The notes: generated from the letters alone by a model not told the origin. A stretch of 64,000 nucleotides of DNA from Candidatus Sericytochromatia bacterium (GCA_036675505.1 JAKFEW010000041.1:8580-72579); one strand, 5' to 3'. Shown: positions 18,954-33,519, numbered from the stretch's first letter. Numbers and translations are program-made.

Positions 18954-19095
18954 GGGGCTTCCTCCAGCCCCCATCTTAACAAAATTGCGTCGCCGCGCCG
19001 GTCCGGGGCGCGATTCGCCGAACCATAACGTAAGTTTTACGTCAGTTTGAGGCTGGGCGCTGGATACATACACCGTCCCCCCCCGCGACCCCTTC

Positions 19096-20052: not shown

Positions 20053-20053
20053 C

Positions 20054-20254
20054 TCAGATCTTCGTCCACTTGCTTTCCGGCCCGCAGGTCCCGCAGACCG
20101 GGAGCATCTGGTCCTTCACCAAGTTCACCATCGGCGGCGGGTTCACGCCGCAGTTGATGCATGCGAAAGCGCCCTCCTCGACGACGCGCTCGCCGGTCTT
20201 GTAGGTCCGCACGGCGGTCTCCGGCTCCTGGCCGGTGAATTCGTATTCTTTCAT
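20054..20254 (-). CDS. Small zinc-ribbon protein.
   Basis: An internal start MKEYEFTG is at 20254. There are two CxxC pairs (CINCG and CGTCG). Confidence 0.45.
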   Translation of the reverse strand: MKEYEFTGQEPETAVRTYKTGERVVEEGAFACINCGVNPPPMVNLVKDQMLPVCGTCGPESKWTKI

Positions 20255-20406
20255 GGCGCGATCCTCCTGCCGGGGCCCATGATGGCGCCGATCGCCCCTC
20301 TGAATCAACGAACGACCGGCCTCCCGCGCCTTCGGCGACCGCCCGGGTGCCGGCATGTGGGGTTCCACGGATGGACGCCAGCCCGCGCCGGGCCGATGAT
20401 CGGACC

Positions 20407-21891
20407 ATGGTGCGATCAGCTTGCGGCAAGGCGCTCGGCGTCGGGATGATCGGCGTGGCCCTCGCGGCTTGCGTCGGCGGGCCGCCGGCCGGCGCCCCGG
20501 TCGGGACGCCCGGCAGCCAGGTGGCTGGCCCTTCACAGGCCCTGGCGAGCGGCCCGCGCGACCCGCTCGAGGTCACCATCACGGCGAGCGAGTTCGGCTT
20601 CACGCCGCGCCGCCTGCAGGTGCCCGTCGGGCGGCGGATCGACTTCCGCTTCGTGAACCGGGGCGCCATCGACCACGACTGGCTGATCCGGTCGGTCGGC
20701 CTCCACCTGCACGCGACGCCGGGCACCGAGGCGCGGGCCTCGCTCACCTTCAGCGCCCCCGCCACCTACGCGGCGGCCTGCAGCTACCCCACCCACGGCG
20801 ACTACGGCATGGTCGGCGAGCTCGTGGTGGCCGCGGACCCGAACGCCGCGGGCGGCGGCCTCGCCGAGCCGGCCCAGGCGCCTGCGGTGCCTGGCGACGC
20901 GGTGCGGCTGCCGGCGCCTCGCCCGGCGCCGCCCGTGGGCCGGACGGATCCCCGCGTGGTCTACGTCCGCCTCGAGCCGACGGAGTCGGTGGGCCTCGTG
21001 GGTGATGGGGTCGCGACGACGTTCTGGACCTTCAACGGCTCGGTGCCCGGGCCGATGGTGCGGGCCCTCGCGGGAGACACGGTGAAGATCCGCCTCGACA
21101 ACCCGATCCGCAACCGCGAATCCCACAGCGTGGACTTCCATGCGGCGACCGGCCCGCATGGCGGCGCCGCCGCGACCCAGGTCGCGCCGGGCGGCCATGG
21201 CGAGTTCACCTTCAAGGCCGTCCATCCCGGCGTCTACGTCTACCACTGCGGCACGCCGCGCGTCGCCCACCACGTCGCCCACGGCCTGTACGGCCTGATC
21301 GTGATCGAGCCGGCCGGCGGGCTCCCGGCGGTCGATCATGAGCTCTACGTGATGCAAGGGGAGCTCTACCTGGCGGGCGGCGCGGAGGCGCGCGGGTTGC
21401 AGCCGATGCTCTGGAACGACGTCGCCGCCGAGCGGCCGAGCCACGTGGTGTTCAACGGCGCCGTGGATGCCCTCGTGGGCGAGCGGGCGCCGCGGATGAA
21501 CGCCGGCGAGACGCTGCGGATCTTCTTCGGCAACGGCGGCCCCAACCTCGCCTCGAGCTTCCACCTGATCGGCGAGGTCTTCGATCGCGTGTACGTCGAC
21601 GGCAGCAGCCGCGCGCTCGAGCGCGCGTCGGTCGTGTCGGTGCCGCCCGGCGGCGCGGCGATCGCCGAGCTGGTGCTCGAAGTGCCAGGCACCTACCACC
21701 TGGTCGACCACGCGCTCTCGCGGGTCGGCAAGGGGGCGCTCGGCGAGCTGGTCGTGGCGGGCGAGCCCCGCGCGGACCTGTTTTCGCCGGGGACGCTGGT
21801 GCCGATCGGCCACGATCACCCGGCGGGCGACCACAAAGACCACGGCCACGGCGCGGGCACGCACGACCACGGTGCGCCGGCCGCCGAATGA
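20407..21891 (+). CDS. nirK: Copper-containing nitrite reductase (NirK family) with a fused N-terminal cupredoxin domain and a His-rich C-terminal tail.
   Basis: The cupredoxin ligands are HDW, C-SYPTHGDYGM. NirK-type motifs are VDFHAATGPHGG and VYHCGTPRVAHHVAHGLYG. The C-terminus reads HDHPAGDHKDHGHGAGTHDHG. Confidence 0.7.
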   Translation: MVRSACGKALGVGMIGVALAACVGGPPAGAPVGTPGSQVAGPSQALASGPRDPLEVTITASEFGFTPRRLQVPVGRRIDFRFVNRGAIDHDWLIRSVGLHLHATPGTEARASLTFSAPATYAAACSYPTHGDYGMVGELVVAADPNAAGGGLAEPAQAPAVPGDAVRLPAPRPAPPVGRTDPRVVYVRLEPTESVGLVGDGVATTFWTFNGSVPGPMVRALAGDTVKIRLDNPIRNRESHSVDFHAATGPHGGAAATQVAPGGHGEFTFKAVHPGVYVYHCGTPRVAHHVAHGLYGLIVIEPAGGLPAVDHELYVMQGELYLAGGAEARGLQPMLWNDVAAERPSHVVFNGAVDALVGERAPRMNAGETLRIFFGNGGPNLASSFHLIGEVFDRVYVDGSSRALERASVVSVPPGGAAIAELVLEVPGTYHLVDHALSRVGKGALGELVVAGEPRADLFSPGTLVPIGHDHPAGDHKDHGHGAGTHDHGAPAAE

Positions 21892-21895
21892 ACTG

Positions 21896-21921
21896 CCGGC
21901 CTCCCGGTGACGGGAGGCCGG
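21896..21921. terminator. GC hairpin (ccggcctcccg gtga cgggaggccgg) immediately after the nirK stop.
   Basis: An 11-bp perfect stem with a 4-nt loop sits 5 nt after the stop codon. No T-tract follows, as is common in high-GC genomes. Confidence 0.4.
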
Positions 21922-21930
21922 CCTCGAGGC

Positions 21931-22020
21931 GAGCGCTGAGGGATTCGAACCCTCGGAGGCTTTTGAGACCTCATTCGTTTTCAAGTCGGTCCAGGCGCCG
22001 TTTCGGGGAGTTCCGCCGAG
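21931..22020 (-). pseudogene. Degenerate tRNA-Ser-like remnant (copy A). It has an intact T-arm and anticodon-loop-like segments but no foldable acceptor or D arm.
   Basis: The reverse complement contains GAGGGTTCGAATCCCTC (T-arm), CTTGAAAAC (Ser-UGA anticodon-loop signature) and AAGCCTCCG (variable arm). It aligns at about 70% to the intact tRNA-Ser at 33283-33367. No cloverleaf of normal length can be made. Confidence 0.5.
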
Positions 22021-22108
22021 GCGGTCCGGGGCCGCTCTTCCTCGCCGCAGTTCGATCCTACCACGGCGGCGACTTCGTCCACGGTCCGCGTAGGCGGGGG
22101 CGCGGCGG

Positions 22109-22137
22109 GGAGGTGGCGCCCAAAATCGGCGCCCAAC
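22109..22137. repeat. Conserved direct-repeat motif, copy A: ggaggtggcgcccaaaatcggcgcccaac, containing two GGCGCCC half-sites.
   Basis: The same motif occurs at 24623-24651 and 33453-33480. Each copy lies about 80 nt upstream, in the minus-strand sense, of a tRNA-Ser or tRNA-Ser remnant. Confidence 0.6.
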
Positions 22138-22250
22138 CCAACCTAGGTCGCGCCAGCCGCCAGGTCCAGGCTGTCGCTGGGTAGAGAGATCACGCACCCT
22201 TCTTGATTGGGTCGCCACCAAGCAAGGACAAGTGGGAGAAGTAGAACTAA

Positions 22251-24002
22251 ATGGCAGAGAATCCCTTGCTTCGATTGCTTTCCGCGGGCCTCGCCTCGAT
22301 CCGTGCGGTTGGCGCGGGCAAAGCAAGTGCGCCATCCAATCCCGGCATTTCGCAGGTGCAGTTGGAGGCTGTCGAGAAGTACCGTAAGGCTGCTGAGCGA
22401 GGCGACGCGGCAGCCCAGTATATGCTGGGGGATGCGCACGCCAAGGGCCAGGGAGTGGCACGGGACCACGCTAAAGCGGTGGAGTGGTGGCGCAAGGCTG
22501 CCGAACAGGGCAACGCGGATGCGCAGTGGAGTCTCGGGGTTGCGTACGACAACGGCTGGGAGGAAGTGGCGCAGGACCACGCCAAGGCTGTGGCGCTCTA
22601 CCGCATGGCCGCCGAGCAGGGCAACGTGAGGGCGCAGTGGAGCCTCGGCTATATGTACCGTGAGGGCCGTGGCGTGGCGCAGGACCACGCTAGGGCGGTG
22701 GAGTGGTGGCGCAAGGCTGCTGACCAGGGCGACGCAGCGGCGCAGTACGGCCTTGGCGTCGCGTACGTCAACGGCCAGGGCGTAGCAATGGACGAGATCG
22801 AGGCGGTGGAGTGGTGGCGCAAGGCCGCCGAACAGGGCAACGCGAGCGCGCAGCGCGACCTCGGGTCTGCGTACGCCTACGGTAGGGGAGTGCCAGTGAA
22901 CCGCAAAAAAGCGATGTTGCTGTGGTTCGATGCTGCTGAAGGGGGCGACGAGGCGGCCCAGTGTATACTTGGGGTTGCGTTCGATACTGGCGTAGGAGCG
23001 CCATTGGACCACTCCAAGGCCGTGATGTTTTATCGCATGGCCGCCGAACGTGGCAACGCGGAGGCACAGTACAACCTAGGGTTTTCGTACCATAGCGGCC
23101 GTGGTGCGGTGCAGGACGACGCAATGGCGGTGGAGTGGTGGCGAAGGGCCGCCGAACAGGGCGACGCGAAGGCGAGAGAGGCTTTACAGCATCCTCGCCT
23201 TGTCAACCAGGCGAGGCACCGCGAGACCAACGCCGGTGAGCGAGAGAAAGCCATGGTCAATGTCGGCACCTCTCAATATCCAAGTTACTCTGGCGCCGAA
23301 CTCCACAACATGAAGCGAGCCCTCGATCAGATGCTTGCTGAAAGGTTGCGAGCTGGCCTTTTGGAGGAAGCCAAAGAGATTCATACCAGGCGAGGTGAAC
23401 TCATTGCTTGGATAGAGTCGAAGAACCCCGCCTACAAGCATGCGCGTGAAACGTATATACTTCAGACTGAAGTCATTGACCGGATGATGATTGGCCAATG
23501 CTTTGAAGGGCCGTTCCAGGATCCGCCAATGTATGACCGCTTTGGTGCTCGGGATTCCAGCCCGTTCTTGGATGCAATAAGGGTAATGAAGGGTGAGTTG
23601 TACATTCGCACTGGATCACCATTCGGCTCCGAGCTTGCGGAGTTCATGACGACCAAGGACTTCAGTGTTCTGGAGGATGTTCGGCGAGGTCTAGCAAGTG
23701 AAATCAGGGAAATGGAACAGACGTCGTTGTCGCTTGGACGCGAGGCTGACGGACTTGCTTACCTGAAAATGCAACTTGAAGATTTTGAGACAATCCTAAC
23801 TGAGTCTTGGCTGTTTGCATATGAAATGCGAAATTGGCTGGTTCCCGAGGGGGACTCTGAATCTAACCCGGGCCATGGCCCCATTGACTTTAACGAATGG
23901 CAGGTGTGGAAGCGAATGGAATTCGAGCGGGCAAGTAGTATCTGGACCAACCACCAAGATGGTCCGCCGGCGGCGCTGCGAGTAAATGAAGCAGCAAGCT
24001 GA
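22251..24002 (+). CDS. Sel1-repeat protein (about eight Sel1/TPR-like repeats) with a C-terminal domain of unknown function about 290 aa long.
   Basis: There are repeated units of the form AAEQGNAxAQxxLGxAYxxGxGVxxDxxKAVEWWRKA. The gene is low GC. The C-terminal half has no recognisable motif. Confidence 0.7.
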   Translation: MAENPLLRLLSAGLASIRAVGAGKASAPSNPGISQVQLEAVEKYRKAAERGDAAAQYMLGDAHAKGQGVARDHAKAVEWWRKAAEQGNADAQWSLGVAYDNGWEEVAQDHAKAVALYRMAAEQGNVRAQWSLGYMYREGRGVAQDHARAVEWWRKAADQGDAAAQYGLGVAYVNGQGVAMDEIEAVEWWRKAAEQGNASAQRDLGSAYAYGRGVPVNRKKAMLLWFDAAEGGDEAAQCILGVAFDTGVGAPLDHSKAVMFYRMAAERGNAEAQYNLGFSYHSGRGAVQDDAMAVEWWRRAAEQGDAKAREALQHPRLVNQARHRETNAGEREKAMVNVGTSQYPSYSGAELHNMKRALDQMLAERLRAGLLEEAKEIHTRRGELIAWIESKNPAYKHARETYILQTEVIDRMMIGQCFEGPFQDPPMYDRFGARDSSPFLDAIRVMKGELYIRTGSPFGSELAEFMTTKDFSVLEDVRRGLASEIREMEQTSLSLGREADGLAYLKMQLEDFETILTESWLFAYEMRNWLVPEGDSESNPGHGPIDFNEWQVWKRMEFERASSIWTNHQDGPPAALRVNEAAS

Positions 24003-24021
24003 TTGGGCCAAGCGGGTGATG

Positions 24022-24492
24022 TCATCCGATGAAGCCGCATTTGAGGCAACCTTCTCCACCGAAATTCTCGTTGTATCGTAGCCCCCCACCCCAACCGCAT
24101 TTCGGACAGAACTTCCCAGGCTCGACGTCGTCCCACTGCCACGCACCAACATACTCCGGGATGCCGTCGCGATCAATGCTAGTTACTTCAAATACGTCCG
24201 GCTCAACTGATATCCAGGCATTTCCGTAGTGACAACGCAACTCCTCGTAGACTTCCCCGGCAGAAAAGTTGAACCATTCAGAATGGGCGCGCTTCGCGCG
24301 GTACTTTTGGTGCAACCTCGCTTCTAGGTCACGGTCATCGCTGGATGTGAGGTAGCCCATCAACTTTAGCTGCTGCGGGCTGCCGGTTTGAAGCTCTCTC
24401 ACTCTTCGAGGAACATCGCCACTGTACCCGATCTTTACGCGGATGCAGTTGTAGTCAGGGTTCTCGTTATCTGCAATGAAGTAAACGGCCAA
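24022..24492 (-). CDS. T5orf172 (GIY-YIG-like, MUG113) domain protein with a C-terminal zinc ribbon.
   Basis: CIRVKIGYSGDVPRRVRELQTGSPQQLKLMGYL...LEARLHQKYRAKRAHSEWFNF matches the T5orf172 consensus. The C-terminus has CPKCG...CLKCG. The gene is low GC. Confidence 0.65.
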   Translation of the reverse strand: MAVYFIADNENPDYNCIRVKIGYSGDVPRRVRELQTGSPQQLKLMGYLTSSDDRDLEARLHQKYRAKRAHSEWFNFSAGEVYEELRCHYGNAWISVEPDVFEVTSIDRDGIPEYVGAWQWDDVEPGKFCPKCGWGGGLRYNENFGGEGCLKCGFIG

Positions 24493-24495
24493 GAG

Positions 24496-24651
24496 TTGAG
24501 ACCTCGTTGTTCAGTCGCCCCAGGCGCCGGTTCGAGAAGTTCCGGCGAGATCGACTCGGGCCACGCTGGGTAGCCCCTGCTCGAGACTTCGTTCACGGTG
24601 GGCGGAGGCGGCTCCGCCGTGTGGAGGTGGCACCCAATTTGGCACCCAGAC
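24496..24651 (-). pseudogene. Truncated tRNA-Ser-region remnant (copy B). It lacks the T-arm but keeps the 5' half and the upstream direct-repeat motif (24623-24651).
   Basis: ttgagacctcgttgttcagtcgccccaggcgccggttcgagaagttccggcgag aligns to copy A (21965-22020). The repeat here is ggaggtggcacccaatttggcacccagac: both half-sites changed to GGCACCC. Confidence 0.45.
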
Positions 24652-24706
24652 TGAAGCTGTCATACCTCCAGAGGCCGTCGGTGTTGTGCAGCGAAGCTAG
24701 AAAGTT

Positions 24707-25516
24707 TCAGTGACTACCCTGGAGCAAGGGGAGGCGCAGTTCGCGTTCAGGCCCACGTTTAAGGTACTCACTCACTAGACGAATCCAGCATCGCAGTTCG
24801 GGACCCGGCACACGGACGAAGCCGTAGTGCTTTCGCTGGACCTGCTCCAACTCGTCATCAGGAATGCCAGGACCGACTTCGGCGATGTACTGAGCCAACC
24901 GGATCCCGATTCGGAAACCTAGGTCCTGGGTCATTACCAGAGAGCGCACTACGCAGAGGCTCGGAAACGGATTTTCGACACGATTTATCTCAACCACCTG
25001 GTCGAGAATAGCATTGAAGAACTGGTCATCGCCGGAATAGACTGCTCGCTCTTGGCCGGGCTCTGGCCATAGCTCAACGGCAACGGCCTCCACGTTCAGG
25101 AAGGTCGTGCGTGGGAGATCGGAAAAGCTTGGTTCGCTTACGCCGTCTTCTACGATGGCCCAAGTCCGCTCTAGAGGCCAAACATCAAAGAGCCACTCTG
25201 ACTTTCGTAACTGGAGCCCTCCGAACCGGGTTTCGCGGGTGATCAAGTCCTCGAAAAGATCGCGCAGGCTTTCCAAAGGCTGGCCCTGGGTAACGATGTC
25301 CACATCACGTGGACGGCCCACACTCCGGTGAACGAGTCGCGAAATGAGCAGAGAACGTAATGTGCCTCCAAAGAGGACCGCCTGCCAGTTGTGCTGGCGA
25401 ATGGACCCCGTAACATCCGACAAAGCTTCCCAGACGCCTTCCTGACGACGGCAGAACGAATCTACCTCCGTCCTTAGCATCATCTTAAGATCGTCGATTG
25501 TTGTAGCATTAGCCAT
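24707..25516 (-). CDS. Hypothetical protein with a nucleotidyltransferase (Pol-beta-like) fold signature. Translationally coupled to the upstream dGTPase.
   Basis: There is an 8-nt overlap with the dGTPase stop. The motif LFGGTLRS...RPRDVDIV (G[GS]...DxD) is present, with a later acidic residue at FDVW. The gene is low GC. The functional call is tentative. Confidence 0.45.
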   Translation of the reverse strand: MANATTIDDLKMMLRTEVDSFCRRQEGVWEALSDVTGSIRQHNWQAVLFGGTLRSLLISRLVHRSVGRPRDVDIVTQGQPLESLRDLFEDLITRETRFGGLQLRKSEWLFDVWPLERTWAIVEDGVSEPSFSDLPRTTFLNVEAVAVELWPEPGQERAVYSGDDQFFNAILDQVVEINRVENPFPSLCVVRSLVMTQDLGFRIGIRLAQYIAEVGPGIPDDELEQVQRKHYGFVRVPGPELRCWIRLVSEYLKRGPERELRLPLLQGSH

Positions 25517-26960
25517 TGGTCAACTCCGAGTGAAGACGCTTGGCAAACGAATCGGTCATGCCACAAACATAGTCTGTCACCAATTGAAGGCGATGATAAT
25601 CAACAGGCAAGTCTTTTTCCTGCACAGCAGAGTGTGCAAACACTTTGCGATAGGCATCAGAAAGCAGTGACTGCGATTTGCCAGCAAAGGACTTCGGCTT
25701 CGGGGCTTTGCCGGGTTCAAGCACGCTAGCACCCTCCCAAAAGAGGGTGAGCAGATCACTTATGACTTTCCGGCCCTGCAGTTCTAGCTTTAGATTGGAG
25801 TGTGTGCAGTAAATCTTGGTGCGTCCAATGAACTTCAATAGTTCCACAAATGGGGCTTGCTCACCTGTTCCCACCAACTCGCCCTCACCTTTGCCGTTGA
25901 ATCGCCCCTCCATGATTGCGTCGTAGTTCTGTTCGAACTCCCTGGCTGCCGCCTCTACTAGAACACCGATTGCAGCAGTGCGGAATGCGGCCGCATGGAC
26001 ATCGTCGGGCAAATCTGCTGGATTCTCGCTTGGCTTGAGAACACGTGCTTTACCTTCCAATACCCTTTCAACGGTATCTGATGCCGCTTTCAGTTTGGCG
26101 TCTTTGGTCGCAGGATCCTTATCGTCCCATATTGCTGCGAGTTCCAACAATGCCGCATCTTTCAAGAGGAACTGCAATTCGGGCCAAGACAAAATACGTT
26201 TCTTTACTCCGTCCTCGATGTCCGCAACAGAGTAGACAATATCGTCTGCAGCTTCAATAAGAAACGCAATGGGGTTACGCGCGTCGCCTGTCCCGGTCTT
26301 TTGCCGGATTCCTTCGATGAGGCTTTTTTCCGAAGTAAAGTAGCCTGGCTTCGATTTTGCGTGGTCAACGACTGTGCCCACCTCCATCGACGACGCCGTG
26401 TATTTGCATAGTGCAGACAACGTGCCAAAGGTTAGGTTCAACCCGTTATAGTCGGCCAGTACATGAAGCTTCGCCACGATTCGCATTGTCTGGGCGTTGC
26501 CCTCGAATCGCAAGAAGTCATCAACCAATTCTTGCCTGCCTCCAAGGAGGGCCAACAGTTCGCCCTTATTGAAGAACTTTCTGAACCATTCCTGGATGGC
26601 ATCTTCTCCAGAATGACCAAACGGAGGATTTCCAAGGTCATGAATCAACCCACAAGTCCCAGCAATCGCTTCGATCTGACGATCTTGCCCGTCTTTGATG
26701 TGCCCTTTCGGCAAGAGAAAGTCTTTGCTTACCTTCCTCGCAAGCCCACGGGCAACTGATGATACCTCCATGGAGTGGGTCAAACGCGTACGCACAGAGT
26801 CATGAGGCTCCAACGGAAAGACCTGGGCCTTGTCCTGAAGCCTCTTTACGGGTGACGAAAACACGACGCGATCGTAGTCACGTTCGAACTCTTCGCGGTG
26901 ATCACCACCGCTGGAAGACTTGCGAGGGCGTTCGGAGTTCAGAAGCGTATCCCAGTTCAC
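25509..26960 (-). CDS. dGTPase-family (Dgt, HD-domain) deoxynucleoside triphosphate triphosphohydrolase. Putative nucleotide-depletion defence effector.
   Basis: RLTHSMEVSSVARGLA and HDLGNPPFGHSGE are the HD metal-binding motifs. The C-terminus has YVCGMTDSFA. The protein is 483 aa. The gene is low GC, lies in an accessory island, and has an AT-rich promoter region at 26961-27023. Confidence 0.8.
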   Translation of the reverse strand: MNWDTLLNSERPRKSSSGGDHREEFERDYDRVVFSSPVKRLQDKAQVFPLEPHDSVRTRLTHSMEVSSVARGLARKVSKDFLLPKGHIKDGQDRQIEAIAGTCGLIHDLGNPPFGHSGEDAIQEWFRKFFNKGELLALLGGRQELVDDFLRFEGNAQTMRIVAKLHVLADYNGLNLTFGTLSALCKYTASSMEVGTVVDHAKSKPGYFTSEKSLIEGIRQKTGTGDARNPIAFLIEAADDIVYSVADIEDGVKKRILSWPELQFLLKDAALLELAAIWDDKDPATKDAKLKAASDTVERVLEGKARVLKPSENPADLPDDVHAAAFRTAAIGVLVEAAAREFEQNYDAIMEGRFNGKGEGELVGTGEQAPFVELLKFIGRTKIYCTHSNLKLELQGRKVISDLLTLFWEGASVLEPGKAPKPKSFAGKSQSLLSDAYRKVFAHSAVQEKDLPVDYHRLQLVTDYVCGMTDSFAKRLHSELTNG

Positions 26961-27023
26961 TCGCGGTTCTCCTCATTAAATGACGGTCTCAAAATGTAGA
27001 TACCGGTTAAACGTGACGAGATA

Positions 27024-28142
27024 CTATTTTTCAAAATCGAATTTCCCAGGCAAAAGCTGTAAATTGGGGCGAATACCTGAAATTGGAGGAGTCGAACTCT
27101 GACGTCCTCCATCAACGGCCGACATCAAAACGCCAAACGTCAAGGCCTCAAGTTCAGGAAGCGGAATACACAACTCCCGCGCTATCTCAACCTTTCGGCG
27201 ACCCTCTTCAAGCAACATTCCAAACACATTCCTGAAAATCTCTGACGTCTCGCGCGAGATCGAATCTGGTTCGTGAGTCCGAAAGCCGCGCTGTGAGACC
27301 TCAATCGCCATCGTTCGATACTGCCACTCAGTGAGTAACTCCAGATGGTGTAGTCGATAAGCAAGCGCGGCCACAGAAACGCCCCATCCGCGCTTAAGCC
27401 GAATTAGCCCATCAACAGACGGGGTACGGCGAATGGCTGCAAGAACAGATTCCGCAGGCATCAAGAAGGCAGAGGCGAACGCGTTTGCGTCGCGCTCCGG
27501 ATCCCGATCAGCGGGCATCCCAAAACGGTGCATCACCAAATGACCCAACTCGTGGGCTGCATCGAGCCTACTCCGCTCGCTCGACTTCTTTGTATTCAGA
27601 AACACGTAAGGCCGAAAGTCGCGCCAAAGTGAAAAAGCATCGACCTCTGCACAGTCCTCCGCAAGGGAGAAGACTATTACACCCTTTTCCTCAAGAAGAT
27701 GAACCATGCTTGGAATCGGTCCACTTCCAAGATTCCAATAGGCCCTAAGGACGACGGCAGCTTCTTCTGGAGAGTGATTGCTAAGATCGGGAAGATCCGC
27801 ATGGTCAAGTGAAAACTCTTGCTCAATCCAATCGGCCACGACAATACCCAATGCGCCAGCACCAAGCGCTGCGTCCCGCTGGCTCGCCGTCATTCGTTTA
27901 AGCGACCTAAAGCTAGCGCTCTCCGGCTTAGGTTCAAACAAAGTCGGTCCAGCGAAGAACTCAATCGGAAAGCAGAGTGAACGAGAAAGCTTGTTGAGAG
28001 TCTCACCGCAAGGGGGGCGACTACCGTCCTCGAACATCTGAAGAGCCCGTGTTGAGACCCCAACGTTCTCAGCCAACTTTACCTTGCTCAAGCCCCTACG
28101 CTTGCGCGCCAAGGAAAGCCTAGTTGGGTTGAACTCCGCCAT
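27024..28142 (-). CDS. Fused XRE-family HTH plus ImmA/IrrE-type zinc metallopeptidase (HEXXH) regulator.
   Basis: The start MAEFNPTRLSLARKRRGLSKVKLAENVGVSTRALQMFEDG (HTH_XRE) was verified at 28142. The peptidase motif is HELGHLVMH. There is a 23-nt overlap with the upstream gene. Confidence 0.8.
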   Translation of the reverse strand: MAEFNPTRLSLARKRRGLSKVKLAENVGVSTRALQMFEDGSRPPCGETLNKLSRSLCFPIEFFAGPTLFEPKPESASFRSLKRMTASQRDAALGAGALGIVVADWIEQEFSLDHADLPDLSNHSPEEAAVVLRAYWNLGSGPIPSMVHLLEEKGVIVFSLAEDCAEVDAFSLWRDFRPYVFLNTKKSSERSRLDAAHELGHLVMHRFGMPADRDPERDANAFASAFLMPAESVLAAIRRTPSVDGLIRLKRGWGVSVAALAYRLHHLELLTEWQYRTMAIEVSQRGFRTHEPDSISRETSEIFRNVFGMLLEEGRRKVEIARELCIPLPELEALTFGVLMSAVDGGRQSSTPPISGIRPNLQLLPGKFDFEK

Positions 28143-28845
28143 CCCTGGCCTCCATTTTGCGACGAACAACCTTGACCTTGGCCGAAGGCACCGAATCGAA
28201 GGACGGCACATCGTTGATCTCATCGAAGACGGGATCAAGGAAAATACGATCCGTCCAGCCAGTTACCTGACCACCGACGATTCCATTCGGCAGCGACAAC
28301 TCGCAATTCGCACCGGTTTCCGTCGGATTGATCAAAAGCCAATACGTTGCGCGCCTCTGAGGAGCGTCGCGCCGCTCGATGTCAAGTCCTAGCGCAAGCT
28401 GGTACTCACGAGCGTAGTTACTCTCGATGGCGCGCTCAGACGCAGACCCTCGGGGGTTCTTGATCTTCGCAACGCCATCTCGTTGCCCGGTGGCCGCATT
28501 TCCTTGCGCCGCAGTGATTGCGATATCCATCCCCCGGTGGTAAACGGTCTGGAGGCCGCAGTCGCGCATTGCCACCCAACCCGCCTCTTCAAGCAGGTCA
28601 CGAAGTTTGCGAATCGGCTTGCCCCAGAGAAGTGTTCCCTTCATGGAGTCTACTTCGTTCGGACCACACTCACGGTAAAACCCGAGTGCGTACAAAATTG
28701 CCTGGTGCAAGATTTCCTGTCGCAGTCCAAGGGTTCCCAGCTTCGCACTGGTCTCGTCGTCGCGCCAACCTAGCTCGTCCAAAAGCAAGTCCTCCTGAAC
28801 AGTTCGCCAGACCTTGACTGGCAGCTTCCGGATTTTATACCTCAT
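28120..28845 (-). CDS. Hypothetical protein (241 aa). It is the first gene of the operon that contains HTH-ImmA.
   Basis: Low-GC ORF that overlaps the downstream regulator gene. No recognisable motif. Confidence 0.55.
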   Translation of the reverse strand: MRYKIRKLPVKVWRTVQEDLLLDELGWRDDETSAKLGTLGLRQEILHQAILYALGFYRECGPNEVDSMKGTLLWGKPIRKLRDLLEEAGWVAMRDCGLQTVYHRGMDIAITAAQGNAATGQRDGVAKIKNPRGSASERAIESNYAREYQLALGLDIERRDAPQRRATYWLLINPTETGANCELSLPNGIVGGQVTGWTDRIFLDPVFDEINDVPSFDSVPSAKVKVVRRKMEARDGGVQPN

Positions 28846-28911
28846 TTGATGGGGGAAATCAAGAAGCAGTGTTCAACGGCCCGAGGTCCGGAGGCCAGTC
28901 TAGATTGTAGC

Positions 28912-29241
28912 ATCGAACAAGGGTTCGATCGTGTTCGGGAATTTGCATCCGGAGCGCCCAGACAAGGACCTCCTCCCGCGCCTGGACTTGAATGCGCCTA
29001 GGTCGTCTTTGGGCGCCAGAGATTGATCTGGCGCTCGAGTCGCCGGGCGCGACACCTCATGAACGCTCGTTGATCGCCCTGCGCACTGTTGGTCTTGAAC
29101 GACCGTTCATGACTTCTCGCGAACTCCTCGTCGGCATGCCCAGCCTCCCATACCCGCGCTGACCTTGGGTTCAATCACGTACCATCCCCCTGGCTTGGAA
29201 ACCCCGTCACTTGTCCGTCTCACTCCTTGAACGAACGTTTA
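28912..29241. promoter_or_regulatory. Promoter region with four GAAC-N4-GTTC-type palindromes (28912-28929, 29060-29073, 29096-29109, 29228-29241) and one GCGCCAGA-N6-TCTGGCGC palindrome (29013-29034). Candidate HTH operators.
   Basis: The sequences are atcgaacaagggttcgat, tgaacgctcgttga, tgaacgaccgttca and tgaacgaacgttta. They lie 70-400 nt upstream of the 28845 start of the hypothetical/HTH-ImmA operon. Confidence 0.45.
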
Positions 29242-29391
29242 TGAAGGTGAACACGATTCCGCAGGAGGTCTAGCCCTATGGCAAATCGGCGCTTCGTCGC
29301 CTACTGGCCTCAAGCGGCGGGAGTGCCACCCAGACGTGCACCTCCACCAACCGGCAGCTTCATGAGCCAGGGTCACGTGATACTGCCGCAC

Positions 29392-30009
29392 CTACTCACC
29401 GCACGTATGCAGGAGTCGGTAGTCCTGCGCCGTCTGCCACGCCGTCGCGAACGAACACGAGGCCTTCCGTGCGACTTCTGCAATCGACAGGTCGGGCGCG
29501 CTCTCGAGCGCGGTCCACACGTCGGCGCGAAACGACGGGCCCATAAGCACACGGTTTCGGTAGCCCGCGTGGCGTCGAACCAGAACTTCAGGCGAGAGCA
29601 CGTCCTCGTGGCGATCTCGGAGCGTGCCCATGGGCACGCGTAGCAATGACCCCCTGAAGCGCCCATCTTCGCCCCGCCACTTGACCTGGAACTCGGTGCC
29701 CGTCGGCAATAGATCAATCGGCGAGCCCTTGTAAGCGCTTGAGAGGCGGGCGAGTCGACGATCTCCTTTGAGCCACGAGGCGATGGCCGCCCAGTAGGCG
29801 CGGACCCTTTCGGACGGATACACACTCACGAGGCGCACGAGCCGATCGGCGTTGACGTGGTTGTGATGCACGCCGAGCCAAACGGTCAGGACGCCGAGCA
29901 CGCGGAAGTCACCATCGTCCATGCCGAGGGCAGAGGCGTGCAGGAGCGTACCCTCGATGTCCGCGTCGGCCTCGGCTTCAACGGCGAAGTTCATCCCGAT
30001 GCCCGCCAT
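29392..30009 (-). CDS. Hypothetical protein downstream of the MNT-type nucleotidyltransferase. Possible toxin-like partner. The start is uncertain (30009 or 30072).
   Basis: The ORF has protein-like composition and no canonical HEPN Rx4-6H motif. It abuts the stop of the MNT gene. Confidence 0.4.
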   Translation of the reverse strand: MAGIGMNFAVEAEADADIEGTLLHASALGMDDGDFRVLGVLTVWLGVHHNHVNADRLVRLVSVYPSERVRAYWAAIASWLKGDRRLARLSSAYKGSPIDLLPTGTEFQVKWRGEDGRFRGSLLRVPMGTLRDRHEDVLSPEVLVRRHAGYRNRVLMGPSFRADVWTALESAPDLSIAEVARKASCSFATAWQTAQDYRLLHTCGE

Positions 30010-30061
30010 GCGCGCCGCTAGCTCGTTGGGCGCAGGCGCAGGCCTTGGCGAGGTATCACGC

Positions 30062-30352
30062 CTAAACGGCATAACCGAGCCTCCGCGCGAGGCCAGCGAC
30101 CGTCGCCCCAACATGGGCGGGCCACAGCTCATTCAGGTCGATACCGGCCTCGCGCTGCGCCTTTGAGAACTCGCGAGCAGCCGCAGCGATGGCTGGTGGA
30201 AGTTCGGGCACGAGGATGTCGAAGTCGCGCGTCGGACGCTCGATGACGCCCATGAGACCTAGCGCCGAGCCGCCGATGACGACGCCCTCGAACCGCAGGC
30301 CGAGCCCGAGCATGTGGCGATCAAATGCTTCGATGGTCGGGCGGGGGAGCAT
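30062..30352 (-). CDS. Minimal nucleotidyltransferase (MNT-type, Pol-beta superfamily).
   Basis: VIGGSALGLMGVIERPTRDFDILV matches the hG[GS]x9-13DxD motif. The protein is 96 aa, typical of MNT antitoxin-like proteins. Confidence 0.6.
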   Translation of the reverse strand: MLPRPTIEAFDRHMLGLGLRFEGVVIGGSALGLMGVIERPTRDFDILVPELPPAIAAAAREFSKAQREAGIDLNELWPAHVGATVAGLARRLGYAV

Positions 30353-30531
30353 CGAACACCCTCGTATCGGTTAGTCCGATACCGATTTTCGCACTTTGCT
30401 GCATGCCTCGTCAAGCGGCGTTCACACTTACCCCCCCACGGCGCCGGTTCGAACGGCGAAGGAACCGTTATAGTGCGCCGTGCATCTCGGCCCCATCTTG
30501 GTTAAGGTTGGTTCAAGAAGGGATCCCACCG

Positions 30532-31269
30532 ATGACCAAGATCGCGCTCCTCCTGCTCCTCGCCGTGCTCCCGGGCTGCGCCCGCGCGCCGCTTCCCGCG
30601 ACCACGGCCCCGGCCAGGGCCCTCGTCGCCCAGCAGGCGACCAGCGGCCCGGCCACGCCCACCGGCATCGCCATGGACACGCCTTGGAAGCGCGAGGCAT
30701 ACGCCTACGCCGTTGCGAACGTGAAGCACCCGGCCTGGGGCCTGGCGCATGCCGAGCGCGACCTGCGCCTCGCGCTCGACCTCGCCGCCCAGGATCGGCT
30801 GGCGGTCGATCCCGACGTCCTGTTCGCGGCGGCCTACCTGCATGACCTGGGCGGCCTGCCGGGCTTCGAGCAGGAAGGCGTGGACCATGCCGTGCGCTCC
30901 GCCCAGCTGGCGGAGCCGCTGTTGAAGGGTTGGGGCTTCCCCATGGCGAAGTTCCCGCTGGTCAAGGCGACGATCCTCGGCCATGTCTACTACGGCAAGG
31001 ATGCGCCGACGGCCGCCGAGGCACGGGTCTTCCACGACGCCGACCTGCTCGACTTCCTGGGCGCCATGGGCGTCGCCCGCCTGCTGGCCGCCACCGGCGA
31101 GGCCCCGACCATGGCGCAGAACCTGGCGGTGGCGCGGAAGTTCGCCGTCGAGCTGCCCGGCAAGCTGCTGACCGATGCGGCCCGCGCCCAGGCGCCCGCG
31201 CGGGTCGCGGAGATGAAGGCGTTCTTCAAGGCCTTCGACGCCGAGAGCTATGAGGGTAAGGCGATCTGA
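30532..31269 (+). CDS. HD-domain phosphohydrolase lipoprotein.
   Basis: Start MTKIALLLLLAVLPGCA (lipobox). The HD motif is AAYLHDLGG, followed by conserved H and D residues (HVYYG, FHDADLLD). Confidence 0.65.
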   Translation: MTKIALLLLLAVLPGCARAPLPATTAPARALVAQQATSGPATPTGIAMDTPWKREAYAYAVANVKHPAWGLAHAERDLRLALDLAAQDRLAVDPDVLFAAAYLHDLGGLPGFEQEGVDHAVRSAQLAEPLLKGWGFPMAKFPLVKATILGHVYYGKDAPTAAEARVFHDADLLDFLGAMGVARLLAATGEAPTMAQNLAVARKFAVELPGKLLTDAARAQAPARVAEMKAFFKAFDAESYEGKAI

Positions 31270-31391
31270 GCGCGATCGACACGCGCCCGTCAGGCACCAC
31301 CGCGTCCGACGACTGGATCGCCTGACCACGCTTCGAGCCTCCTAGCGGGCGTTGGCCGGGCCTGTCCCAGCGGACATGGTAACCTTGCCCC

Positions 31392-31715
31392 ATGCCTGCT
31401 GCAACGCCCCCTCCACCCTACTACGCCGCGATCTTCACCTCACGCATGGCCAACACGGCCGGCTACGGCGAGATGTCCGAGGAGATGGTCGCGCTCGCCC
31501 GCACCCAGGACGGCTTCCTGGGGATCGAGAGCGCCCGCGACGCGAATGGCCTCGGCATCACGGTCTCCTACTGGACCTCGCTGCAGGCGATCGCCGCCTG
31601 GAAGGCAAACGCCGACCACCTGGATGCCCAGCGTGAGGGCCGCGACCGCTGGTACGCCCGTTTCCAGGTGCGCATCGCGCGGGTCGAACGGGCGTACGGG
31701 TTCGAAGCCCCCTGA
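31392..31715 (+). CDS. Antibiotic biosynthesis monooxygenase (ABM) family protein.
   Basis: 107 aa with an ABM-like pattern (FLGIESARDANGLGITVSYWTSLQAIAAWKAN). Confidence 0.6.
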   Translation: MPAATPPPPYYAAIFTSRMANTAGYGEMSEEMVALARTQDGFLGIESARDANGLGITVSYWTSLQAIAAWKANADHLDAQREGRDRWYARFQVRIARVERAYGFEAP

Positions 31716-32049
31716 CGGTAGAGGCCTCCCCCCTCCCGCCCCCCGCGAAGCCGCTGACCGGCTACCCCCTCTGTCCCGCTCGCGGAAGTTCGGGCACGAG
31801 GACGTCGACTTCGCGCGTCGGCTGCTCGATGATGCCCATGAGCCCCAACGCTCCCGGACTTACACCACCTTACGGGACATGACCTCGGCGCGCTTACGTA
31901 GGTCCACTTCTTCTGCGCACAATTGAGGTCGCCGGCCTTGCAGAGGTCAACGACGTCATAGACCTCAACGACGGAGTCAGCGAACCTCGCACGAGATCTG
32001 CCTCGCTTGCCTCCGAGCAGGGTACATCTCTCGCTAGGAGGCGGCCCTC

Positions 32050-33234
32050 ATGCACACAGTTCGCAAAGCGGCATCTCGACTTGCGATCCAACCGCCACTC
32101 CGATCCCTCGCGTCGATCGCTCTCGCCGCAGAACTCGGTGCGATGCTCGGTTGCAACCTGACGCCTGCAGGACGCTCGACCGTCACCGCCGCCCCGTCGA
32201 TTGCCGCCACGGTGGCGCCTTCGCCCGCCACGGCCGCGCCGTCGCCAGCCCCCGCCTCTCCCTCCCCGTCCGCAGGGCGTTCCACGCGTCCGGCGGACGG
32301 TCGCGCCTCCGCCCGCCCCGAGGCCCCCGACAACGCCGGACCGGCCTCGGAGGTGGCGCTCGCGGAGCCCGTTGGCCTCACCTTCGATCGAGCCGGCTCG
32401 CTGCTCGTCGGCGAGGCCGCCGTCGGCCGCGTCCGCGCCATCGCGCCGGATGGCGCCGTCACCACCCTCGTCGACGCCGCCAAGGGGACCATCAAGGCAA
32501 ACTTCCCCGGGCTGACGGACCTGGCCTGTGGCGCCGACGGCTCGCTCTACGCCGTATCCGCGACCTCGGGCATCCACCGTGTGCGGCCCGACGGCAGTAT
32601 CGCCGCCATCCCCGGGGACGCCGCGACCCCAGGCGGCGAACCGATTCGACCGAGGTCGATCGCCGTGGGACCGGACGGCATGGTCTACGTCGGCGAGTTC
32701 GCGAACGACGTCGAGGGGCCTGGACCACGCCTGCTCGCCTGGAAGCCCGACGGGACGCCCCGGATCCTTCCCACGACCATCACCCTTCCGCCTGGCAGCA
32801 TCGTGGGCATTGCGCCTTCGGCCGACGGTTCGATGCAGTTCGCGTTCGTGGACGTCGCGGAGAACGTGACGCTCTACCGGCGAGCCGCCAAGGGCGTAAC
32901 CTCGGTCATCGCCGCCTACGCCGACGGCCAGGGTGCCAGCGACCTCGCGACCTCGACCTTGGGTGGCGTCTACCTGGCACGGCCGAAGCTGGGCAAGGTC
33001 ATGTACATGTATCCGCAGGGTCTCGGCTCCGCCGTCGTCGACCCAGAGACGCCTGCAGCATCTGCAGGCTTCCCCGTTCCACGATCGGTAGCTACCGGCC
33101 CAGACGGCACCTTGTTCATGGCGGATACCGCCACGGCCCTTGTCTACGCGATCCGCTCCTACCGCACCTGGGAAGTCGTCGGACCTGGGGCCGCGCCCTT
33201 CACGCCCTTGAGCCGGGAGGAAAACGGCGGGTGA
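32050..33234 (+). CDS. Lipoprotein with NHL/SMP-30-like beta-propeller repeats.
   Basis: A signal peptide with LGCN is followed by an Ala/Pro/Ser-rich linker. Repeated LYAV/VYVG...DG beta-propeller blades are present. Confidence 0.6.
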   Translation: MHTVRKAASRLAIQPPLRSLASIALAAELGAMLGCNLTPAGRSTVTAAPSIAATVAPSPATAAPSPAPASPSPSAGRSTRPADGRASARPEAPDNAGPASEVALAEPVGLTFDRAGSLLVGEAAVGRVRAIAPDGAVTTLVDAAKGTIKANFPGLTDLACGADGSLYAVSATSGIHRVRPDGSIAAIPGDAATPGGEPIRPRSIAVGPDGMVYVGEFANDVEGPGPRLLAWKPDGTPRILPTTITLPPGSIVGIAPSADGSMQFAFVDVAENVTLYRRAAKGVTSVIAAYADGQGASDLATSTLGGVYLARPKLGKVMYMYPQGLGSAVVDPETPAASAGFPVPRSVATGPDGTLFMADTATALVYAIRSYRTWEVVGPGAAPFTPLSREENGG

Positions 33235-33243
33235 CAAGTGGAA

Positions 33244-33274: not shown

Positions 33275-33282
33275 CAGTTAAG

Positions 33283-33367
33283 CGGGGAGTGTCGGATTCG
33301 AACCGACGGAGGCTTGCACCTCGGCTGTTTTCAAGACAGCTGCGATAGACCACTCCGCCAACTCCCC
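33283..33367 (-). tRNA. tRNA-Ser (anticodon UGA), 85 nt with a long variable arm.
   Basis: The reverse complement is GGGGAGTTGGCGGAGTGGTCTATCGCAGCTGTCTTGAAAACAGCCGAGGTGCAAGCCTCCGTCGGTTCGAATCCGACACTCCCCG. The acceptor pairs 7/7. The anticodon loop CTTGAAA gives anticodon TGA. The T-loop is TTCGAAT. The variable arm is 17 nt. Confidence 0.85.
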
Positions 33368-33379
33368 AAGGTCTACCTG

Positions 33380-33452: not shown

Positions 33453-33480
33453 CGGAGGTGGCGCCCAAAGTGGCGCCCGA
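33453..33480. repeat. Conserved direct-repeat motif, copy C (ggaggtggcgcccaaagtggcgcccgat), upstream of the intact tRNA-Ser.
   Basis: This is the third copy of the GGAGGTGGCRCCC-N-GGCRCCC motif. It lies 86 nt upstream of the tRNA 5' end. Confidence 0.6.
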
Positions 33481-33519
33481 TTCGCCCCGGGGAAGTCGGT
33501 CCGGCGGACCCATGATAAC

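Follow-up and report, generated by a model that had tools for sequence, protein, structure and literature searches.

Two Tandem Genomic Islands in the Anticodon Loop of a tRNA-Ser(UGA) Gene, an Imported Replacement tRNA, and a Repeat Motif That May Mark Recombinase Arm Sites

Introduction

How does a genome come to hold one intact tRNA-Ser(UGA) gene and, up to 11 kb away, two damaged pieces of tRNA-Ser, each accompanied at a similar distance by the same short motif? This question is raised by a 64-kb stretch of a Sericytochromatia-like genome, the whole of which is called the window in this article. The motif, M, occurs three times in it, exactly as the earlier note had quoted it, with the consensus GGAGGTGGC[G/A]CCCAA..GGC[G/A]CCC, and a tRNA-Ser(UGA) anticodon-loop sequence lies about 110–125 nt from every one of these copies (n = 3). 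The note had described the two pieces, i.e., copies A and B, as a decayed full-length copy and a 5'-half remnant, and had named as one possible explanation the serial integration of elements that carried tRNA sequence together with its promoter-proximal region. As described below, the serial scars are borne out by related contigs (those with an L number), and the direction of the history has to be reversed: what came in from outside is the intact tRNA, and the 3' half in copy A belongs to the native gene.

Results

The Native tRNA Gene, Its Empty Site, and Copy A

The left part of the locus consists of the following features:

20347..21891, + strand: nirK, copper-containing nitrite reductase (NirK-type multicopper oxidase), host left flank; Pfam Cu-oxidase and cupredoxin domains
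21894..21922, no strand: G+C-rich hairpin with a perfect 11-bp stem, between nirK and the tRNA fragment
21929..21985, − strand: displaced 3' half of the native tRNA-Ser (T0), the tRNA part of copy A
21986..22138, no strand: island 1 attachment arm, a unit of the “tau” or A type that reaches from crossover to motif; 83–88% identity to the arms of L133, L136, and L181
22109-22138, + strand: M_A, GGAGGTGGCGCCCAAAATCGGCGCCCAAC, starting 123 nt past the anticodon-loop core

The decisive comparison is with L125, a related metagenome contig that represents the empty site. There, the nitrite reductase gene, a hairpin equivalent to that at 21894..21922, an intact T0, and the M16 peptidase gene follow one another, all within about 210 bp. 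The homologues of nirK carry the name nitrite reductase, and the hairpin is probably the common terminator of two convergent genes. By alignment, the window matches L125 up to CGTTTTCAAG (21985), and then again from about 33479, so that about 11.5 kb (21986-33482) are seated in the T0 anticodon loop, TTTCAAG. More distant M16 relatives, at 62–64% identity, have no tRNA-Ser at this locus and are thus uninformative. That the structure of the locus is no assembly artefact is shown by two independent Logan assemblies, each from a different sequencing run, which match window positions 18437-34002 and 20922-24927 with 100% identity.

Copy A was taken at first for a decayed full-length tRNA; instead, it proves to be a native 3' half joined to island DNA. 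It includes the 3' strand of the acceptor, the T arm, the variable arm, and the anticodon stem, through the loop TTTTCAAG (21978-21985), with 91.7% identity over 60 nt to T0 of L001. Its T stem still pairs, with a compensatory A-T/T-A difference from L125, and the collinearity with L125 runs through CGTTTTCAAG, beyond which the similarity collapses. Past TTTTCAAG the sequence is that of the island and has only a faint tRNA likeness (17.9 bits with the tRNA-Sec model, against a threshold of 47 bits); the hybrid fails the tRNA models that the intact gene passes, and we reject a functional tRNA-like RNA on this sub-threshold match. Along the island 1 arm lie GGCGCC, at +9, a −10-like box (atcctacc), and M_A, which closes the arm distally.

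Copy B and the Second Island

Copy B, 2.5 kb further on, consists of these parts:

24496..24514, − strand: T0-like tRNA-Ser 3'-half remnant, ttgagacctcgttgttcag, the tRNA part of copy B
24515..24651, no strand: island 2 attachment arm, diverged but of the A type, with M_B at its end, by alignment to other arms
24623-24651, + strand: M_B, GGAGGTGGCACCCAATTTGGCACCCAGAC, starting 108 nt past the core

The description of copy B as a 5'-half remnant does not hold, since only about 19 nt belong to a tRNA, namely to its 3' half, and the rest is an island arm. The remnant, which the start of the T5orf172 gene cuts short, spans the variable arm, the anticodon stem, and a decayed loop, TGTTCAG, and its TTGAGACCTC is identical to that of copy A and T0. 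Copies A and B can be aligned over about 160–170 nt (21963-22135 against 24496-24648) at about 67–70% identity, and with copy B as another junction of the type seen in copy A, the insert consists of two islands in tandem. The island 2 arm has lost 15 nt, those with the −10-like box of the other arms, and no consensus promoter was found in it; the suggestion that copy B is a captured promoter of the T5orf172 gene is therefore not supported.

The Intact tRNA and the Right Junction

At the right end, the inserted DNA and the host flank are arranged as follows:

33282..33367, − strand: T1, intact island-borne tRNA-Ser(UGA); ARAGORN, and Rfam tRNA at 57.7 bits
33368..33453, − strand: U1, putative promoter region of T1, assigned from its sequence
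33454-33482, + strand: M_T, GGAGGTGGCGCCCAAAGTGGCGCCCGAT, right-hand end of the inserted DNA
33479..33488, − strand: 5'-end remnant of T0, GATTCGCCCC (in L125, AAGCGCCC), by L125 alignment; boundary approximate
33512..33520, − strand: putative orphaned −10 region of the native T0 promoter, reverse complement TGTTATCAT, by conservation
33565..34893, + strand: M16 peptidase, host right flank (Pfam); start set by 442-aa homologues

T1 is the sole tRNA that ARAGORN and Rfam found in the window (Ser(UGA), 33282/3-33367), with its anticodon loop TTTTCAAG at 33328-33335. It is only 76% identical to T0 and sits within DNA that is absent from the empty site L125. M_T lies 86 nt beyond its 5' end, as had been stated, with 33368-33453 in between. 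This intervening U1 offers an extended −10 sequence, gTGaTAAAAT (reverse complement of 33380-33389), 13–18 nt upstream of the T1 5' end, and a consensus promoter scan of U1 found none; U1 is 90% identical to the unit that follows a T1 5' half in L002 (870-1018).

Of the native gene, the 5'-end remnant is left at this side, the other ~30 nt of the T0 5' half being deleted in the window, and L002 keeps the complete half at the same place, beside the M16 gene. In the window and in L001, L002, L003, L124, and L125, the sequence ATGATA(A/G)CATG is conserved a short way upstream of the T0 5' end or its remnant, the distance being similar in each. Two readings of sequences near the peptidase gene were rejected: ATGATAACA is not its start, being conserved as the reverse complement of the T0 −10 box, and GGAGG in M is not its ribosome-binding site, as the real start is at 33565 and the other M copies have no start codon.

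Cargo of the Islands and the Search for a Recombinase

The cargo of island 1 extends over 22251..24492 and that of island 2 over 24707..33234, the latter called with Pfam, PHROGs, PADLOC, and NCBIfam scans:

22251-24002, + strand: Sel1-repeat protein, island 1 (Pfam)
24022-24492, − strand: T5orf172/MUG113 GIY-YIG-like protein, island 1 (Pfam)
24707-25516, − strand: nucleotidyltransferase-like 269-aa protein, island 2 (translation, motif by eye)
25509-26960, − strand: dGTPase, island 2
27024-28238, − strand: RosmerTA antitoxin RmrA, island 2
28120-28845, − strand: RosmerTA toxin RmrT, island 2
29392-30352, − strand: 246-aa protein without assigned function and a DUF6036/AbiEii-like fragment, island 2
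30325-31269, + strand: HD protein, island 2
31392-31715, + strand: ABM protein, island 2
32050-33234, + strand: NHL/SGL propeller protein, island 2

The islands are of foreign composition, with a GC3 of 0.62–0.66 in the cargo of island 1 against more than 0.88 in host genes and a GC of 51–57% across 23–29 kb, and they carry defence genes (RosmerTA and the dGTPase). No integrase, excisionase, or other recombinase was found among the coding-looking ORFs of 21986-33482 with Pfam, PHROGs, PADLOC, and NCBIfam, nor any integrase, with Pfam, among selected ORFs of the short contigs L001, L002, L125, L133, L136, L181, and L228; the search returned only IS transposases (IS66, DDE_Tnp_1, UPF0236) and toxin-antitoxin genes. 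We asked whether the 269-aa neighbor of M_B could be a hidden recombinase and rejected this, as its GG..D.D motif, judged by eye, looks nucleotidyltransferase-like. No free attP, i.e., a circular form, was seen. The only PHROGs matches within the islands were to regulators, to families without a known function, and to one metallo-protease domain; no phage structural or lysis genes were among them, and scans of viral contigs gave no match and then three unrelated ones in coding regions. Because no integrase was found, the islands are probably fossils, i.e., immobile remnants with anti-phage genes.

Related Junctions

Other contigs show what the same arm does elsewhere. In L002, L228, L133, L136, and L181, it is found on other tRNA-Ser alleles, and there are nested piles of 5' halves (L002 and L228); the A-type arm (83–88% identity) is fused at TTTTCAAG to T0 in the window and to a T1-like allele in L133 and L136. 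These fusions represent independent insertions, all by one end of an element. In all five aligned arm copies, which have four different right-hand contexts, the similarity ends directly after M, and between T-type and tau-type units conservation in the alignment is limited to the core and M. What all junctions have in common is only TTTCAAG, i.e., the anticodon loop, with a core identity of 7–8 bp, (T)TTTCAAG, and an unrelated island side.

In L002, the T0 5' half is preceded on its left by M, U1, a T1 5' half, about 86 nt, M, U2, and a complete T2; from one of the M copies, the sequence continues through a T-run and TTTCAAG into the T0 5' half. The T2 arrangement is repeated in L228, and in both contigs the cognate tRNA is likewise part of the inserted DNA. 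One observation that counts against the scar history is that beside nirK in the L001/L250 genome no displaced T0 fragment was seen.

A 14-nt sequence, AAGTCGGTCC, is shared by the copy A junction and the stretch that follows M_T; this match was dismissed as being at chance level, since a third copy lies inside rmrA.

Motif M: Distribution, Layout, and Fold

In the window, GGAGGTGGCGCCCAA with up to two mismatches has three matches where 0.31 are expected, a number that none of 100 shuffles attained, and the two-half-site pattern has two against 0.09 expected. M consists of two GTGGCGCCC-like repeats, 12–13 bp apart, at the outer edge of each conserved arm, of which it is the best conserved block. 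The 12 copies collected have a single orientation and fixed distances: about 108–123 nt from the core on the 5'-half side and, in related contigs, about 78–96 nt on the other side. The copies on that other side are M-like motifs 3' of the tRNA in L001 and L133, and a promoter role is impossible for them because of this position.

GGCGCC being self-complementary, all normal copies are hairpins as well, with −12 to −18 kcal/mol for 10 of the 11 copies folded, and that of M_B is weaker (−7.2 kcal/mol). In M_B, both half-sites read GGCACCC. To the earlier note, this concerted G-to-A change suggested a dimeric protein-binding site, or gene conversion, rather than an RNA stem. The change itself is real, and it is a lone case among the 12 copies; L001 M' and L002b have a change in one half-site only, and copy B alone separates the two readings, the normal copies being hairpins as well. 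A protein-binding direct repeat is a plausible but weakly founded reading of the motif.

T-runs of 5–8 T follow M in L002 (both copies, scored as terminator-like in the scan) and in L228 (read from the sequence, outside the scan); none follows the three window copies or the arm copies of L133, L136, and L181. At one place, the T1-type junction of L002, hardly any spacer separates M from the core, so that M is too close to be an arm site, unless about 86 nt were deleted.

Discussion

Proposed History

T0 at first stood between nirK and the M16 peptidase gene, and two genomic islands entered the 7-nt anticodon loop (TTTCAAG, + strand), one after the other. As the attachment site of the islands has only this loop in common with the target, T0 was not rebuilt: its 3' half was stranded beside nirK, fused to the island 1 arm as copy A, and its 5' half was almost wholly deleted later. 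Copy B joins a tRNA 3' piece brought by island 1 to the arm of island 2, at whose far end came T1, a complete replacement gene together with its putative promoter. The comparisons with L125, L133, L136, L002, and L228 show that DNA was inserted, where it went in, in what nested order, and that the tRNA was imported. The enzyme would have been of the tyrosine integrase type, and M most likely represents paired arm-type sites, still putative, for that integrase or its directionality factor. As a whole, serial insertion by site-specific recombination with M as arm-type sites is the account that we favor, with some reservation.

What Else Could M and the Scars Be?

A different role for M would leave the scar history as it is. 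As a companion of the tRNA-Ser cassette, it could act as an intrinsic terminator or as an insulator hairpin and stop + strand read-through at the cassette edge, the arm copies being inherited relics. The self-complementary GGCGCC, a stem that stays constant while the loop sequence varies, the fold energies, and the T-runs in L002 and L228 speak for this, as do a G+C-rich stem of 6–9 bp and a 6-nt loop, as in Rho-independent terminators. These terminators, unlike M in the window, have a U-run downstream of a co-oriented gene: here the T-run is missing, in the window as in the arm copies of L133, L136, and L181, and the end of a co-oriented gene is not found just upstream (nirK and the NHL gene each have a separate hairpin). 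Moreover, the conserved 5' GAGGT is left without a complementary partner, copy B retains the direct repeat and breaks two stem pairs, and M is kept in arms with a decayed tRNA-like part; we regard the terminator as unlikely. An operator or upstream activating site, for a factor that controls the island tRNA-Ser promoter, would fit the fixed distance of M upstream of T1 (86 nt from its 5' end) and T2 and the tandem repeats one helical turn apart, which are typical of dimeric regulators, with decayed arms retaining M. It is harder to reconcile with the M-like motifs 3' of the tRNA in L001 and L133, with M being better conserved than the −10 boxes supposedly under its control, and with native T0 promoters (L125, L003, L001) that work without M, and it seems improbable.

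Cutting by a homing-type nuclease (T5orf172/GIY-YIG) and repair from an island-bearing allele would dispense with an integrase and make the repeats co-conversion tracts; the T5orf172 gene does start within the copy B tRNA remnant (24492-24514), and an integrase is absent. Against it, the junctions of one arm with different tRNA alleles fall exactly at the 7-nt loop, a signature of conservative site-specific recombination, the related junction contigs, all short or partial, carry no T5orf172 gene, and homing needs long flank homology and would not leave both target halves, all of which makes it very unlikely. Lastly, M could be a generic dispersed REP-like repeat that is near tRNA fragments by chance. 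Short forms of the pattern are indeed common in unrelated G+C-rich genomes: a scan of genome contigs with GGTGGCRCCCAAN{2,5}GGCRCC gave at least 120 chance matches in unrelated taxa, with none near a tRNA-Ser among the matches listed, and a metagenome scan with GAGGTGGCRCCCAAN{2,5}GGCRCC gave at least 120, mostly by chance, 27 of those listed being one unrelated recurrent sequence. Filtering of the metagenome matches listed with blastn left four true relatives, L133, L136, L181, and L228. In the window and the related contigs, where this idea was checked, M occurs only at the three tRNA-Ser units of the former, and every full-length copy of the latter is tied to such a unit, in one orientation and at a fixed distance; chance proximity is hardly credible.

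Comparison with Known Systems

Under the favored account, that of serial site-specific insertion, this style of integration is rare and already described. Guerrero-Bustamante and Hatfull reported in 2024 the tRNA-dependent lysogeny of actinobacteriophages, with cores of 8–17 bp, a host tRNA that is not reconstructed, a phage-borne cognate tRNA, and paired arm-type sites (PMC10865867). The present locus is similar in its very short common core (7–8 bp), in the host tRNA that is not rebuilt, in an element-borne cognate tRNA of the same isotype and anticodon (T1), in pairs of putative arm-type sites that flank the core (candidates, with no integrase found, are the pairs of M near −78 to −96 and near +108 to +123), and in the coexistence of close relatives that rebuild the tRNA, here possibly L001. 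It differs in that these are integrase-less defence islands of a Sericytochromatia-like genome, known from sequence alone, and not phages; the islands lack structural and lysis genes, and the viral-contig scans revealed no relatives. In addition, the replacement tRNA stands directly beside the attachment arm, with M common to both, and the replacement tRNAs are themselves targeted again, which results in the nested piles of 5' halves.

Classical tDNA islands (Williams 2002; Islander, PMC4383910) resemble this locus in the tRNA target, the anticodon-loop crossover, the displaced fragment at the far end, the tandem arrays, and the cargo of foreign composition; in Islander, crossovers centred on the anticodon loop account for 2083 of 3919 islands, and tandem arrays for 125 cases (PMC4383910). 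They restore the gene with the 3' part of the island and keep the host 5' half and promoter, whereas here both T0 halves are orphaned and a whole new gene is supplied. In the terms of Islander, the locus has a split target tRNA, a displaced and correctly oriented fragment (21929-21985), and the anticodon-loop crossover; it shows no regenerated tRNA, the copy A junction scoring below the tRNA threshold and the T0 5' half at the right junction having no partner in L002 and being deleted in the window, and the integrase gene that Islander requires was not found in 21986-33482.

M recalls the attP arm sites of the lambda and L5 type, as tandem direct repeats of about 9–10 bp, about one helical turn apart, about 80–125 bp from the core on both sides and at the outer limit of the conserved att region; tandem repeats in att arms, tens to about 150 bp from the core and conserved among relatives, are what is found here. 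Unlike these sites, M has a palindromic GGCGCC core, and can thus also form a hairpin or dyad, and it abuts the core in one junction (L002).

Implications

At this locus, a manner of integration reported in 2024 from actinobacteriophages, in which a tRNA gene is broken and a replacement brought along, is seen to have shaped integrase-less defence islands in a deep-branching uncultured cyanobacterial relative as well, and an imported tRNA can become the next integration target. For annotation this carries a warning, as the intact tRNA at an island border can be foreign and the fragment native. The core TTTCAAG together with the arm motif offers a search handle for active elements and their integrase.

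A further-reaching reading, which we put forward tentatively, is that of a tRNA-dependent integration outside phages, in which every incoming island would destroy the tRNA-Ser(UGA) in place and bring the sole functional copy, at which the next island would then aim. If so, the host could not lose the island, because it would hold the only working tRNA-Ser(UGA), and the nested succession would be one of defence islands competing for one essential tRNA gene that is held hostage, with M as the recognition site that defines the family. PIN (VapC-type) toxins, which lie beside the site in two relatives, might then add a tRNA-directed addiction.

An Insertion in the Anticodon Loop of the Native tRNA-Ser Gene

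The window contains a single tRNA gene, the tRNA-Ser(UGA) on the minus strand at 33282/3–33367 (ARAGORN; Rfam 57.7 bits), termed T1. A second, native allele, T0, was recognized by comparison with related contigs, and the features flanking the locus are as follows:

20347–21891, NirK-type copper nitrite reductase, left flank
21894–21922, hairpin, left flank
from 33565 (start of the first), two M16 peptidases, right flank

The contig L125, whose M16 is 89% identical, has the empty site, with the nirK end, the hairpin, an intact T0, a conserved ATGATAACATG box and M16 within ∼210 bp. The window is collinear with it as far as CGTTTTCAAG (21985) and resumes at ∼33479, and therefore ∼11.5 kb sits inside the anticodon loop of T0, the TTTCAAG of which will be called the core. 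Regarding base composition, the host DNA has ∼70% G+C and a GC3 above 0.88, while GC3 is 0.54–0.85 from 22.2 to 33.2 kb, and G+C is 51–57% from 23 to 29 kb. The arrangement is not an assembly artefact, because window positions 18437–34002 and 20922–24927 are matched with 100% identity by two Logan assemblies built from separate sequencing runs.

The tRNA part of the first scar, copy A (21929–21985), is the 3′ half of T0, with 91.7% identity to the T0 of L001 and a compensatory T-stem difference from that of L125. The three tRNA-Ser-related units described in the earlier note are real, but their labels are partly wrong, because copy A, taken there as a decayed full-length copy, has a native tRNA part, and copy B is not a 5′ half. 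Copies A and B can be aligned over ∼170 nt; copy A and the intact tRNA have in common only the motif described below and tRNA 3′-half features. A tRNA-Ser directly adjoins M16 in L003 (77% identical) as well, and none was found directly beside M16 in relatives at 62–64% identity. Judged by its M16 homologues, the organism belongs with Sericytochromatia-like bacteria.

On the other side of the insertion, the −10 box of T0 is still present as an orphan at 33512–33520 (reverse complement TGTTATCAT), and by its sequence it is a putative promoter directed into the island. The same box, ATGATAACA, an extended −10, precedes the native T0 in all relatives, and in the window it is kept upstream of M16 though its tRNA is gone. 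The very first nucleotides of contig L124 (1–7) are the TTTCAAG of a tRNA-Ser 5′ half, and strain heterogeneity at the insertion point would produce just such a break in the assembly.

A Motif Shared by the Integration Arms

Each of the three units is accompanied by a motif, M, in the form quoted in the earlier note:

22109–22138, + strand, M_A, at copy A
24623–24651, + strand, M_B, at copy B
33454–33482, + strand, M_T, at T1

When the window was searched for the 15-mer form of M with up to 2 mismatches, exactly these three matches were returned, with 0.31 expected. Both scans of large collections for the motif pattern were swamped by chance matches; of the at least 120 matches in the metagenomes, 27 were copies of a single unrelated sequence, GAGGTGGCGCCCAAGGACGGCACC, which presumably belongs to a conserved coding part of some common gene.

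The other side of the event is retained in L002 (85% identical), where the T0 5′ half, from TTTCAAG, adjoins M16. Reading leftward from there, the contig has a T-run, a copy of M, a putative promoter region and T1 5′-half sequence (90% identity over 149 nt); ∼86 nt further on, a second M and putative promoter region are followed by a third allele, T2, which is complete. L228 has this T2 arrangement as well. Arms with 83–88% identity to that of copy A, which extends from TTTTCAAG to M, are present in L133, L136 and L181; in the first two of these the junction is again at TTTTCAAG, but the attached 3′ half is another one, resembling T1. Together with the empty site of L125, these nested halves and this shared arm bear out the proposal of the earlier note that the copies are serial integration scars. 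In five of five aligned A-type arms similarity ends directly after M, with four different neighbors, and in the alignment of the arms with the promoter units of T1 and T2 conservation is limited to the core and M.

The A-type arm of L136 is interrupted by an IS of ∼2 kb (191–2215), which encodes a DDE_Tnp_1 transposase, has the inverted repeats CTTCGACAGTTGC / GCGACTGTCGAAG and is bordered on both sides by an apparent CCGTTTCG target duplication.

L001 may represent a classical variant of the integration, judging from an M-like motif 28 nt past the 3′ end of its working T0, adjoining an HTH_17/PIN pair. In two relatives, L001 (693–1734) and L133 (355–1028), the M-like motif located 3′ of tRNA-Ser is directly adjoined by a PIN-domain toxin–antitoxin pair, which consists of HTH_17 + PIN_3 and DUF2281 + PIN_3, respectively. 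Positions 3711–3738 of L250 overlap 1–28 of L001 end to end, both contigs coming from one sample, and the joined order is nirK, a C1-peptidase-like gene, a low-G+C spacer, the HTH_17/PIN pair, the M-like motif, T0 and M16; the sequence next to nirK in L250 showed no displaced fragment of a tRNA.

Possible Function of the Motif

The layout of M is GAGGT-GGCGCC-C-(5–6 nt)-GGCGCC-C, and T-type copies contain two GTGGCGCCC repeats with a spacing of 12 bp. The 12 copies collected (L002b included) all have a single orientation relative to the core, from which they lie 108–123 nt away on the 5′-half side and 78–96 nt away on the 3′-half side (L001, L133, L002, L228). No other block of the arms is as well conserved as M, which persists where the tRNA-like and −10-like parts are degenerate; as it is also found 3′ of a tRNA, M is not just a promoter element.

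In its position, as a pair of direct repeats that closes off each att arm on the outside, M resembles arm-type integrase or Xis sites, and we consider such a candidate site the most likely function of M, at slightly under even chances. The main rival is a terminator: M also folds as a hairpin of −12 to −18 kcal/mol, because GGCGCC is self-complementary, and a T-run follows it in L002 and L228. However, T-runs are missing from all three window copies, M does not lie downstream of the end of a co-oriented gene, and its conserved GAGGT is unpaired. M_B, with GGCACCC in both half-sites, keeps the direct repeat and breaks two stem pairs, so that its co-variation, seen in this one copy, points the same way, against a terminator and for a protein site. 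The preference of the earlier note for a protein site over an RNA stem is plausible but weakly supported: the co-variation is that of one copy, two others changed in one half-site only, and G-to-A at CpG is a mutational hot spot.

Proposed Integration History and Known Systems

In the history proposed here, the attachment site of each element would be identical to its target only over the 7-nt anticodon loop, and M would form the outer end of the arm on either side. In some elements at least, a complete tRNA-Ser gene, promoter included, would lie right beside one arm. For a minus-strand tRNA, the order after integration would be resident 3′ half, core, arm up to M, cargo, imported tRNA with its promoter and M, ∼86 nt, core, and resident 5′ half with its promoter; this order reproduces the window, L002 and L228. 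Copy A would then be the T0 3′ half fused to the arm of island 1 (21986 to ∼24514), and copy B a truncated T0-like 3′ piece borne by island 1 and fused to the arm of island 2 (24515–33482), the far end of which would consist of T1, its putative promoter region U1 and M_T. A later deletion would have removed ∼30 nt of the T0 5′ half plus any spacer that island 2 had.

In standard tDNA islands, too, the tRNA gene is split at its anticodon loop, fragments are displaced and arrays occur in tandem; of the 3919 islands of Islander, 2083 are anticodon-centered and 125 form tandems, and 5′ fragments are listed for only 159 (PMC4383910). Here, by contrast, the target stays broken and the element brings an entire cognate tRNA, the pair of features by which tRNA-dependent lysogeny is defined, a process demonstrated experimentally only in actinobacteriophages (PMC10865867). 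The locus shares with it the short core and the cognate tRNA, but not the phage, and is therefore classed with tRNA-dependent integration, as defense islands; it adds that the imported tRNAs were themselves re-targeted. No recombinase was detectable among the island genes with Pfam, PHROGs, PADLOC or NCBIfam, and neither the window nor the related contigs yielded an intact element, an attP circle or an integrase. On this comparative reading, we call the locus a set of probably fossil, integrase-less defense islands in a Sericytochromatia-like genome, integrated in a tRNA-dependent manner, with re-targeting of the imported tRNAs.

Cargo of the Islands

The genes carried are listed here by position:

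between copies A and B, Sel1-repeat protein and T5orf172 protein
between copy B and the tRNA, nucleotidyltransferase-like protein, dGTPase, RosmerTA pair RmrA/RmrT, AbiE-like remnants, HD, ABM and NHL propeller
25509–26960, dGTPase (NCBIfam dGTP triphosphohydrolase, 317–366 bits)
27024–28238, RmrA (PADLOC, 474 bits)
28120–28845, RmrT, the RosmerTA partner of RmrA

Positions 24707–28845 of island 2 are an anti-phage cluster, in which the 269-aa protein beside the dGTPase has a nucleotidyltransferase-like GG..D.D motif and matched no family. The suggestion that copy B serves as a captured promoter for the T5orf172 gene found no support, as copy B lacks the −10-like box of the other arms and no promoter was predicted.

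In the segment 24480–24514, this T5orf172/GIY-YIG-like gene begins with TTG at 24492, 4 nt away from what is left of the truncated tRNA, and its likely ribosome-binding site, GAGG (∼24503–24506), is variable-arm sequence of the tRNA fragment. A 74-nt direct repeat (85% identity) lies at 30192–30265 and 31778–31851, one copy within a DUF6036/AbiEii-like fragment and the second in the interval that separates ABM from NHL, which suggests duplicated pseudogene debris within island 2. Periodic direct repeats of 108 nt (63–72% identity) at 22344–23103, within the Sel1 gene, are the DNA counterpart of the Sel1 repeat units.
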